From the NCBI RefSeq assembly GCF_021028975.2, contig NC_059436.1:11222001-11286000 (forward strand): 64,000 nucleotides of DNA, read 5' to 3'. A model generated the notes under the pieces. That model was given only the letters and a program-made list of their open reading frames with translations. It was not told the origin of the DNA and searched no databases. Position numbers and translations under genes: made by a program. Numbering within the stretch: position 1 is the first letter of the stretch; each line of letters begins with the position of its first letter. Below, in pieces: positions 48,564 through 55,045 of the stretch. Source of the stretch: Sphaerodactylus townsendi (taxonomy: Eukaryota).

Positions 48564-51500
48564 TTAAGCTACGTTGCAATATTCACAGTGATCACAGCAA
48601 TGTGTGGTGATAGCACCAAAATAGTCATCTATTCGGGTTGTTGAACAGTATTTCAATTCTGTAGTGCATCCTTGCCTGGGTTCTTCCTCTGTTCAAAAGA
48701 ACAAAAAGAAACATATTGGTTCATCTATATAAAAATGAAACCATGCGTTTGTTGCTTCGAGAATAACCCCGCACCTGCTGGCCCAAATACACTGAAAATT
48801 TCACAGACAATTACTCATTCCCCTGACTGTGTTCTTACATACCTCCCGCTGTCAGACAACACACCTGAGCCAGGTAAAACATCTTTTTCCTGGAGCACAA
48901 GGCCATGAAGCTGCCTGTGTGTAACTGTCACCCTTAGAATGTTCGTGCCCTTAGAATGTTTGCTCAGATGGCCAGATATGAGCAGTGAAAACAGTATACA
49001 GGCAATAACTCGAGTGGAAGTGAAATACATACACACGTTGCTGTGTGAGACGTCAGGTGGGTTCCCCCCTCACACGCAGGTACCTTTCACTTTCTGTGCC
49101 TCACCCACTACTACCACACAACAGACCTACTCTCATACACATTCAACGGAGGGAGAGGGAAGGGATGGAGGGGGAGGCATGCAAGGGAAGAGAAGTGAGG
49201 GAGGGGACAGAGAGTGAGGGGTGGCATGCAAGGGAGGGGAGGGAGCGGGCCCAGCATCTGGATATGACCCGCCCACCGGAGCAGAGGGAGATGGAAGGGA
49301 GGGAGGGGGAGGGGTGGCGGCGAATACGAGTCCACTGCAGTGGAGAGTTTTTCGCCAGGGTGATAGGTGGGAAGGGGACTATAGGAAATGGGGGCCCCAC
49401 TTAGGGGCTCAGGGATCCCAGTGTTGATGGGACGGGGTAAATACGACGGTAGGCGGTGGCCATATGAGAGGTGGTGGGGGAGAAAGAGAAATGCTCGCTT
49501 ACCTCCTGACCTCCGACCTATCCTGAGGAACGTAGGTGGTAGGGTTCAGAGAGACTCCGCTTCGTCATTGGTGCTGATCAATGCCAGGTCCATAAATAAT
49601 AAGACCACAGTTCTCCGGGATTTTCTCGGGGACCTGCAGATGGACCTGGCTTGTATCACCGAGACCTGGGTGCGTGAAGGGGAGACCGTAGCCTTAGGCG
49701 GGGGTCTCACCCCCAGGTTTCACGTGCCTGCACCGGTCACGAACACGGGGCCGGGGGGGAGGCGTGGCAATGTTCATCCGTAATGCCATCCCTTTTAGGG
49801 CAGCCCCAGTCCCGGAGATCGATGGTTTGGAGTGTGTTGGCCTGGAGTGGTTGGCCCAGGAGAGGTTGGCTGTTCTCCTGGTGTACCGGTCGCCTAGCGC
49901 ACCGGGAGATAGCCTGCTGCGGCTGCTGGAGGTGGTGGTGGCGGATCACGCTGCGGTTCCCCTGCGGCTTATTGTCTCTGGGGACTTCAATGTCCATAGT
50001 CGACGCCACCATGCGCCGGGTGGCTGGCGGACCTGGTGTCATCCATGGCAGCACTTCGGGCCTCCTTAAGTTAACTCTGGCCCCACCCATGAGGTAATGG
50101 CCACACACACTGGACTCCGGCCTTCGGTCGGGGTTAATATGGTCATATCCTCTATTGATAGGGTGCCATGGTCTGACCATTATGCCCTGAAGGTTCGGAT
50201 GGACGTGCCACAACAACCCTTGTCTAGGGCGACGGCGTGATTTTTTGCTCACCGCTGAGACTTCTGCTGGATCCTGTTGGATTCCCTGAATGCTCTGCGG
50301 GACTCTGAACTCCACCGGGCACCCTCGATGAGCTAGTGGAAGACTGGAATTCTACTTCTTCCGATGCCATCGAGGAAGTTAAAGCCCCGGGCGTCTTCTA
50401 CGCTCACGCTCGCGGCTGGCTCCTTGGTATACTGAGGAGCTACCGCCATGAAGCGGGAACTTAGACGACTCAGTGAGCTGAGTGTGGAGGAAAGCTCGCG
50501 GATCTAAGCTACACGAACATCTTATAGGACGCTTATGAAGGCCTATGAGGGTGGGGACCAAGGAGGCTAAAAAGAGTGTTTTTCTCCTCCTCGCCTGCTA
50601 GCTCTCACCAGCACAATTGTTTCTGTGCATTATTCAGTCTCTTTGACCCTCACTGTCTGAGGGGTCTACAAATTGTCAATTGGCTCTTAGCTGTGAGGCA
50701 TTTATGAGCTTTTTTTTTTTGCAGATAAAGTCATGTCAGCTCCTCCAGGACCTCCCTGCCACCTTTTAGAGACAATACGTGAACTGGAGGCACCTCTTGC
50801 CGCCTTCTGGCCCCTTTGTTTGACCCAGTTCTCTCTGCTCGAAGCCGCTGTTGACGAGGGTCCCTAGCTGCTGTTAGGACCTTACTACCATCAGTTCCCT
50901 CTGGATCCAAGTGTCTCTTCCTGGCTTATTAAAGCGTGCGCTGGTGGTTGAGTTACCACCCTGCACCTGTTGAGTATCATCAATAACTCCCTTGAGCAAG
51001 CGAGTTTTCCCTGGTGGGTTGAAGGAGGCAGTAGGTCCGGCCCACTCTTGAAAAGGACCATCGTTAGATCCGGTGATCTGGCTTTCACCACGCCCGCCTC
51101 GAATCTTTCGCTTTTGGGAAGGTAATTGAGAGAGTGGTGTTGGAGCAGCTTCGGGGTTTCCTGGAGGACACATCGGACTTTTGATCCCTTTCAGTCCGGG
51201 TTCCGTGCTGGGCATGGGACGGAGACTGTTCTCGCCGCCGCTACAGATCAGCTCCGCTTACAATCTTGACCGAGGCGGATCGGCGCTGTTGGTCTTGTTG
51301 GATCTGACCGGGCAGCATTTGACGTGGTCGTGATCACGCACCTTTTGACCCACCGCCTTTAGCCTCGGGCCTGCGCGGGCACTGTCCTAAATGGATTGCC
51401 TCGCTCCTCCGGGACCGGACTCAGCAAGTGTGGTGTGGGACCGGAAAGCTTCCCCGAGGTGCTTCACTTCATTGTGGTGTACCCCAGGGAGCCGCTGTTG

Positions 51501-54500: not shown

Positions 54501-55045
54501 TCCCTTCCAGCTTTGCTTTATGAGCACAGGAGCTTCTGGCCTCGGGTTTGTGCAGAGGACAACCTTAGTGCTATTCAGTGGGCACCATTGAAAAAATGAC
54601 TTTGTCCTGAAGAAGAAGAAGAGGAGGAGGAGGAGGAGGAGGAGGAGGAGGAGGAGGAGAGTCGAATTTATATCCCCCCCCCATGGGAAACTCAAAGGGA
54701 TTTACAAACTCCTTTCCCTTCCCCCTCACAACAAACACCCTGTGAGGTAGATGGGGCTGAGAGAGCTCAGAAGAACTGTGACTAGCCCAAGGTCACCCAG
54801 CTGGCGTGTGTTGGAGTGTACAGACTAATCAGGATTCCCCAGAGAAGCCTCCACAGCTCAGGGGGCAGAGCAGGGAATCAAACCCAGTTCCTCCAGATTA
54901 GAGTACACCTGCTCTTAACCACTACGCCACTGCTGCTCTCACACACTCATCCTTCCCATCATGCCTTTGCTGAAATTTTCACTTTCTCACCTGAGACACA
55001 GATGATACCAAGTATTTCGAAGCAAAGAAGCAGAATCGTGTTCAT
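48564..55045 (-). CDS. Secreted Ly6/uPAR (three-finger fold) protein, 100 aa; exons 55045-54991, 54185-54063, 48688-48564
   Basis: MNTILLLCFEILGIICVS/AYGKRLICHSCLDYRKGAGCIHPSTCKPARGQMCQLEQIYS/EEEPRQGCTTELKYCSTTRIDDYFGAITTHCCDHCEYCNVA*. Two phase-1 GT-AG introns, LxCxxC start, GC, CC...CN end. TATA box at 55186-55195; AATAAA on the minus strand at 48333-48338. Confidence 0.9.
49150..49315. repeat. GA-rich minisatellite-like repeat, left block
   Basis: Units ggcatgcaaggga(ag)... and ccagcatctggatatgaccc recur at 52774-53020. Confidence 0.75.
49320..52773 (+). mobile_element. L2-clade LINE, near-complete ORF2 with many indels, in intron 2 of the three-finger gene
   Basis: APE motifs LINARSINNK, ITETW, GDFN; RT motifs QSGFRAGHGTET, GVPQG, YADDTQL; C-terminal DYCN and YRITFKVLVLTFKA; 3' end ccgccctgagccc...gggcgg with (TAAA)n. 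Confidence 0.9.
52774..53020. repeat. GA-rich minisatellite-like repeat, right block
   Basis: Same units as 49150-49315. Confidence 0.75.
54609..54936 (-). mobile_element. Squam3-like SINE with (GAA)n(GAG)n tail in intron 1 of the three-finger gene
   Basis: Reverse complement of the 17544-17845 family. Confidence 0.8.

Follow-up and report, generated by a model that had tools for sequence, protein, structure and literature searches.

Does the minus strand between positions 48564 and 55045 of this gecko DNA carry a real gene, and if so, to which family does it belong and what might its product do? The window, by which we mean the whole stretch of 64,000 nucleotides that was analysed, is C12:11222001-11286000 in the 1.81-Gb genome of Sphaerodactylus townsendi. 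Our analysis showed that the gene is real. That is, it is an intact three-exon gene of the Ly6/uPAR (LU) type, and its product is predicted to be secreted. The gene sits in a displaced duplicate, about 13.4 kb long, of part of an LU cluster on the same contig. We class it with the PATE-type locus, in a squamate subfamily whose gap between cysteines 6 and 7 is long.

An earlier note on this DNA had proposed three exons with intron phases 1/1 and a product of 100 residues, and this gene model was confirmed at the same coordinates (Table 1). The exons are joined at GT..AG sites, both introns have pyrimidine tracts, and the frame runs through 100 codons and a stop codon with no internal stop. The cysteine gaps are 2, 8, 5 and 7 in exon 2 and 6, 15 and 0 in exon 3. 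These gaps, and the end of the protein two residues beyond CN, agree with the pattern described before, but an eleventh cysteine within the CC-x5-CN loop had been overlooked. Since the stop codon follows so closely after CN, there is no glycosylphosphatidylinositol (GPI) signal. The best 11-residue hydropathy stretch scored 2.74 in residues 1-22 versus 0.39 in the remaining protein, and the predicted signal peptide may be cleaved. The charge of the protein is near-neutral, with 9 Lys and Arg and 10 Asp and Glu residues.

The protein was compared with its relatives and, through a paralogue, with known folds. A profile of 29 full-length relatives gave the window protein 42.7 bits, versus 4.7 bits at most for 500 shuffled sequences. 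Its ten cysteines occupy columns with Cys in all 29 relatives, and Asn follows the tenth. The Pfam scan gave a divided result: exon 2 alone matched UPAR_LY6 at 9e-5, under the curated cut-off, but exon 3 alone matched nothing. When the PDB was searched by sequence, the exon-3 profile returned PSCA, SLURP1 and other LU proteins; no match was returned with the exon-2 profile or the subfamily profile. Structure prediction was carried out on the paralogue P0060 in place of the window protein and gave a predicted local distance difference test (pLDDT) score of 63. Foldseek gave no match at E<=0.001 for this model, and the folds listed were LU-type only. In the VIA comparison GPIHBP1 came first (Z 8.4, root-mean-square deviation 2.9, 77 aligned), and the top 38 rows were all LU-type. 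The gene model, the profile score and the LU fold of the paralogue support the claim that the product is a secreted three-finger protein without a GPI tail.

We then considered the origin of the gene. When 664 kb were scanned with profiles, 18 LU loci emerged at C12:11.030-11.182 Mb, which is 90-240 kb from the window gene. Thirteen of the 18 have five Cys each in exons 2 and 3 with the frames open; their proteins end 1-14 residues beyond CN and have no GPI tail. The scans found no LU exons at C12:10.62-11.03 Mb and no convincing LU exon at C12:11.286-11.486 Mb, where one weak CC..CN match lies at 11445k. The segment that carries the window gene is collinear with one unit of this cluster. The orphan signal-peptide exon at 43412-43358 is present because the duplicated cluster unit included locus g07, and it is followed by neither exon 2 nor exon 3. 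The closest sisters are loci g08 and g10, of which exon 2 is 95% and 85% identical to the window copy, respectively. Both sister copies show an alignment gap where the window copy has its LINE-type (long interspersed nuclear element) insertion, which was gained after the duplication and contains an endonuclease domain match (8.4e-6) at 49698-50066. A second duplicated piece, at 57535-60224 of the window, is 90-98% identical to C12:11121768-11123660 within the cluster. Because of this piece, several duplications make up a mosaic at 43-68 kb. The exon-3 gaps of g08 and g10 (C12:11076860-11077060 and 11102380-11102570) are common to both, although the window copy is nearer g08 than g10 in exon 2 and intron 1. 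They may come from gene conversion or assembly error.

Three cluster members carry automatic NCBI names in this species, namely PATE4-like (P0004), PATE14-like (P0060) and PSCA-like (P0003). The window protein was absent from the results of the protein database searches, which were word-based or covered representatives only and used exon or profile queries, and the window gene is likely unannotated. The description "probably uncharacterised" in the earlier note holds in this sense for the window copy.

The next question is the family. The exon-2 profile collected 31 representatives at E<=0.001. Among the 22 that were looked up, 21 were lizard or turtle proteins and one was an elephant PIP-1-like protein, and many of the names were PATE-like, SP-10, PIP-1-like or SOLD1-like. 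A protein search with exon 2 alone as the query returned no match, which is weak evidence. Identity to the skink protein P0030 was 43-46% over 35-residue stretches in each exon; BLAST of exon 2 alone gave E 6.0, which is non-significant. The tree was made from 35 domains, leaving out broken genes, g09, g12 and multi-domain hits, and its bootstrap is not fully settled. In this tree the window gene formed a clade with g07, g11, skink P0030 and tegu P0014 (96/98), and six LY6-type genes of the gecko genome (C852, C9) were separated at 97/94.

The neighbouring genes point the same way. HYLS1 is at 10.655 Mb, 375 kb to the left of the cluster, and STT3A and CHK1 are 55-62 kb to the right of the window, so that the cluster is located between HYLS1 and STT3A/CHEK1. 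Further right, beyond STT3A/CHK1, there are SRP-receptor alpha, TIR and DcpS domains. The window itself contains the large exon of PANX3 (34841-35572, minus strand; E 1e-89 to PDB PANX3). In two sets of candidate frames for neighbours, of 140 and 16, Pfam gave a clear name to 13 and 1, respectively. These neighbours (HYLS1, PANX3, STT3A, CHEK1 and others) belong to the human 11q24.2 block, and by eye we also recognise PUS3, CDON, SIAE, EI24, FAM118B, RETSAT and TGOLN2 near the locus. A tandem cluster in the region from CHEK1/ACRV1 to HYLS1/DDX25 (human order) is a trait of the PATE family and is found here; DDX25 and an ACRV1 orthologue were not located. ACRV1 and PATE1-4 have been placed at human 11q24.2 (PMC4839075, PMC6600238), and the rat Pate cluster lies between Acrv1 and Ddx25 (PMC3316536). 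The earlier note could assign no ortholog or family. From the neighbours and the tree, the family at least can be assigned, to the PATE/ACRV1-type locus and not to a LY6/SLURP/3FTx-type cluster.

Table 1. Features of the window around the LU gene (window coordinates)
Feature	Position	Strand	Remark
Segmental duplicate carrying the gene	43347..56739		Collinear blocks, 88-98% identity to cluster unit C12:11071415-11085142
Orphan signal-peptide exon and promoter	43358..43412	-	Copied from exon 1 of cluster gene g07
AATAAA	48333..48338	-	226 nt 3' of the stop codon; candidate poly(A) signal
Exon 3 coding sequence, 125 nt including stop	48564..48688	-	Cysteines 6-10, CN, two residues, stop
Codon of the extra (eleventh) Cys	48585..48587	-	Between Cys9 and Cys10; mature domain has 11 Cys, not 10
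Intron 2, 5374 nt	48689..54062	-	Precisely spliced out in one X3 and one X4 contig
LINE-type insertion, about 3.5 kb, in intron 2	49319..52772		Alignment gap in both sister copies
Exon 2, 123 nt	54063..54185	-	LU cysteines 1-5; phase 1/1; UPAR_LY6 match 9e-5
Intron 1, 805 nt	54186..54990	-	SINE-like (short interspersed nuclear element) repeat and simple repeat; retained in X3/X4 contigs
Exon 1 coding sequence, 55 nt	54991..55045	-	Predicted signal peptide (18 codons); donor in phase 1
TATA-like element, variant TATTTAAAT	55187..55195	-	150 nt 5' of the ATG; candidate promoter element
Duplicated CDC26/PRPF4 head-to-head segment, part	60219..64000 (runs to 68086)	-	CpG-island promoter faces the gene

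The mammalian PATE/ACRV1 cluster (human 11q24.2, mouse 9A4; PATE1-14, SSLP1) resembles the gecko genes in its three exons, signal peptide, length of about 100 residues and tandem arrangement, and in the single secreted ten-Cys LU domain that ends at CN. HYLS1, STT3A, CHEK1 and PANX3 are nearby there, too. Unlike the mammalian genes, the window gene stands outside the cluster, in a duplicate. The reptile proteins named PATE3/4/14-like, SP-10, PIP-1-like and SSLP1-like (P0060 of the gecko, P0030 of Tiliqua, XP_066495786.1, and P0014 of Salvator, A0A8D0BUU9) share the long Cys6-Cys7 gap and the 96/98 clade with the window gene. These automatically named proteins have ten Cys, whereas the window protein has eleven. 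We found no experimental characterisation of these reptile relatives in the literature that we reached.

The eleventh cysteine is the unusual trait of the window gene, which is ordinary as a single gene. None of the 29 relatives has an extra Cys in the Cys9-Cys10 loop, and cluster locus g18 and the elephant protein P0018 have an extra cysteine elsewhere in the domain. Among the differences listed for the four sequencing runs X1-X4, there was no variant in this codon. By analogy with the five disulfides of LU proteins (PMC6600238), the window protein would pair its cysteines 1-5, 2-3, 4-6, 7-8 and 9-10. The eleventh would then be left unpaired and could form a putative disulfide-linked homo- or heterodimer. 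Such a dimer would be like that of irditoxin, in which the eleventh cysteine of the subunits makes a covalent heterodimer (PMC6600238). Alternatively, the spare cysteine might disturb folding.

Taken together, we give a probability of roughly 0.55 to the reading that the gene is an intact displaced PATE-type duplicate, and that its predicted-secreted 11-Cys three-finger protein works like the mammalian PATEs in the male tract. That is, a TATA promoter of its own would drive the gene in a narrow tissue, presumably of the male tract, and the protein, after signal cleavage and folding with the five LU disulfides, would be secreted into male-tract fluid. There it might coat sperm and bind sperm-surface proteins or channels, to judge by the PATEs of mouse and rat. 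PATE genes are expressed in the epididymis (PMC3192744), deletion of Pate8-Pate10 caused the loss of sperm ADAM3 and of migration into the oviduct (PMC6744855), and nicotinic receptors are modulated by certain members (PMC4839075). As the cluster of origin lies among the neighbour genes of the mammalian PATE cluster, a normal protein of the reproductive tract is the likely product, and not a toxin.

Several results, which concern the family, the protein, the sister copies and the RNA, weigh against this reading. The published PATE motifs are C-X2-C-X7-8-C-X6-C-X7-8-C and C-X3-C-X15-16-CC-X4-5-CN (PMC3192744). The window protein departs from the first in its third gap (Cys3-Cys4), which is 5 and not 6, and from the second in its first gap (Cys6-Cys7), which is 6 and not 3. 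The first motif was found in 8 of the 13 C12 domains and also in P0030 and P0014, the second in 4 of the 13, and both were exact in 4 of the 13, which for its part speaks in favour of a PATE-type cluster; across the clade of the window gene, the Cys6-Cys7 gap is 6-8. As both strict motifs failed, we filed the gene as a PATE-type locus member and not as a strict PATE. The tree contained no true mammalian PATE sequence, and its sole mammalian row, the elephant PIP-1-like protein, is on the PATE side of the 97/94 split at a position within the group that is not settled. Compared with human, the genes stand in a shuffled order, with unrelated genes interspersed. The predicted signal stretch includes one Glu, and in secreted proteins selection usually acts against a free cysteine (PMC6600238). 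Both g08 and g10 are frameshifted in exon 3 before CC..CN, g08 is additionally without an intact first exon, and g09 is without Cys6.

To these points the result on selection has to be added. Compared with the two sisters, exon 2 of the window copy has 2 and 6 non-synonymous changes and no synonymous change. The divergence of the introns is not exceeded (P 0.82 and 0.26), and no purifying signal was seen. Positive selection on the window copy was also considered and found no support, the exon-2 excess being non-significant. Thus neither purifying nor positive selection is evident on the window gene. Among the close paralogues, all 16 nucleotide changes in exon 2 were non-synonymous (P about 0.02), although 3 of the 5 compared genes are damaged, and the excess over intron divergence was significant only for g07 versus g09 (0.087 versus 0.021, P 0.004).

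Four sequencing runs, all from one organism and a single study, contain the stretch. Two are large (X1, X2) and two small (X3, X4), and none is recorded as RNA. In one contig each of X3 and X4, position 48688 is joined straight to 54063 (X3 record 17, 488/489; X4 record 24, 1547/1548), which is the exact junction of exons 2 and 3; contigs of X1 and X2 cross the exon-3 acceptor unspliced. We infer from this that X3 and X4 are RNA, with tissue and library type not on record. The letters of their contigs match the window copy, with 0 and 1 differences over 54063-54601 (539 nt), versus 13 and 29 for the sisters, and one coding change was found among the differences listed; this counts in favour of the main reading. 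Of the two junctions predicted in the earlier note, the other one, 54185-54991 between exons 1 and 2, was not among the 15 joints listed. Its lack is no proof of absence, because contigs drop rare forms. The X3 and X4 contigs continue into intron 1, and X4 crosses the exon-1 donor unspliced. In RNA that keeps intron 1 the frame would stop after 28 codons, and by eye no signal-like in-frame start was evident where intron 1 continues the open frame of exon 2. The TATA box and the poly(A) signal reported before are both present, the former as a variant, but the cover of X3 and X4 passes through both, upstream to at least 55903 and downstream beyond AATAAA. With exons 2 and 3 joined but intron 1 kept and the promoter crossed, these contigs therefore do not show a protein-coding mRNA, and the functional secreted peptide of the earlier note is a candidate. 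At 48499-48568, five differences in 70 nt are common to X3 and X4, lacking in X1 and X2 and mostly lacking in the sisters. One of the five matches g08, one alters the last residue, and the pattern is not A-to-G; they represent a divergent haplotype or an unassembled copy.

These results lead to the strongest alternative, which we regard as possible but not favoured, namely that the gene is a young intact duplicate that makes no protein, and that its RNA is non-coding and arises by read-through from a CDC26/PRPF4 promoter. The segment to the right of the gene, which extends to C12:11290086, is 91-95% identical to C12:36052344-36058008 and includes CDC26 and the first PRPF4 exons with the CpG island; the later exons of PRPF4, at C12:36.052-36.058 Mb, are lacking in the copy. 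Its promoter, about 9.5 kb upstream and on the same strand as the gene, is a possible source of the intron-1-keeping RNA. Besides the form of this RNA, which begins upstream and is the only RNA-type form seen, the broken sisters, the lack of a purifying signal, the odd cysteine, the LINE insertion, the out-of-frame ATG at 55163 and the failure of the database searches to return the protein all agree with this alternative. On the other hand, the frame, the ten Cys and the four splice sites are intact here, as compared with two broken sisters of similar age, and skink and tegu have retained the subfamily. The promoter is also conserved: a block of about 330 nt around the TATA-like element is 77-80% identical to the g07-type promoter and the orphan promoter copy. 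Furthermore, no contig was seen that joins the CDC26/PRPF4 promoter to the gene, with the cover checked to 56300. If the gene is a PATE-type duplicate at work, as we prefer, the intron-1-keeping RNA would presumably be a read-through by-product in other tissues. The ATG at 55163 (minus strand) is 32 nt past the TATA-like element and opens a 58-codon frame that overlaps the gene start; the orphan promoter copy has an ATG at a similar position.

A rather improbable alternative is that the protein is functional and secreted but belongs to another gland or epithelium (skin, cloacal, scent, oral or oviduct), where it would be an antimicrobial, a signal or a cholinergic modulator. Some PATE members modulate nicotinic acetylcholine receptors and some mouse Pate genes are placental (PMC4839075), and a rat PATE kills E. 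coli (PMC3316536). The Cys6-Cys7 spacing specific to the subfamily and the wholly non-synonymous exon-2 changes described above fit this idea. However, the near-neutral charge is a poor fit to a cationic antimicrobial, and the mammalian members are mostly male-tract genes.

That the gene is related to SLURP or the three-finger toxins (3FTx) of snakes, in the LY6/3FTx lineage, is very improbable. The fold and exon plan are alike, SLURP1/SLURP2 and the LY6 genes include secreted forms, and the 3FTx, especially irditoxin with its own eleventh Cys, have a secreted ten-Cys scaffold. There were also a weak exon-2 match to Toxin_TOLIP (E 0.011) and a best Atlas feature match to a toxin-like cluster at 0.82, which is a lead only. 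Nevertheless, the LY6-type genes of the gecko are at another locus, on contig C852, and on a separate branch of the tree, which contained no actual 3FTx sequence, and most have hydrophobic GPI tails. The source of the snake toxins is the TOP1MT-linked LY6 cluster (PMC10421932). The window gene is not in such a cluster and has no venom context, and its dimer is only putative; a search for topoisomerase I gave one locus on C5 and none on C12, TOP1MT itself not being located. At C852:2116000-2343000 there is an LY6-type cluster of GPI-tailed genes, with two secreted-looking genes that end five residues past CN.

Least credible is an assembly artefact, in which a cluster gene would have been duplicated falsely: close to its exon 3, g08 shows numerous single-base gaps of the kind left by poor polishing, some of which may be errors, and the sole X1 contig at 54123 shows the g08 letter, but the X3/X4 contigs carry the window letters, the X1/X2 contigs carry the letters of both sisters, and the window copy has a LINE insertion of its own.

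Other features were seen around the locus. Exons at 17063-24930 (plus strand) and 6977-7408 (minus strand) of the window resemble SIAE and RETSAT, respectively. A caspase domain (Pfam 3e-7) lies at 2169-2519 (minus strand), with more caspase-like exons just left of the window. CR1-like retroelement fragments are at 30150-31444 and 61594-62625, and there are two N gaps, one near 8.5 kb and the other near 42.3 kb. A signal exon and a repeat-rich frame of 557 residues with a Pfam match to KCT2, resembling TGOLN2, lie between the cluster and the window (L030:7887 to L031:2228, plus strand). To the left of PUS3/HYLS1, at C12:10622001-10641200 (L075-L076), at least 19 kb of G-rich tandem repeat is stop-free in any frame, and this is a satellite or an assembly artefact.

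The names given automatically by NCBI already point to reptile PATE-like genes, and our literature search, which was of limited reach, did not turn up any account of such a cluster in reptiles. The main text of PMC10421932 mentions neither "PATE" nor "gecko". The present analysis contributes one gene that is probably unannotated, and it locates 18 clustered LU loci of a lizard in the mammalian PATE neighbourhood. We speculate, quite tentatively, that an ancient amniote PATE locus expanded independently in lizards, that the window gene belongs to a squamate-wide, fast-evolving subfamily, and that the unpaired Cys of the gecko copy makes a covalent dimer that acts on sperm or in mate signalling, as a non-venom parallel to irditoxin. 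Because the lizard cluster sits in the mammalian PATE neighbourhood, our findings suggest that the PATE cluster predates the split of reptiles and mammals. They also suggest that squamates have in the PATE-type cluster another source of secreted three-finger proteins, a second one next to the cluster that gave rise to the snake toxins.

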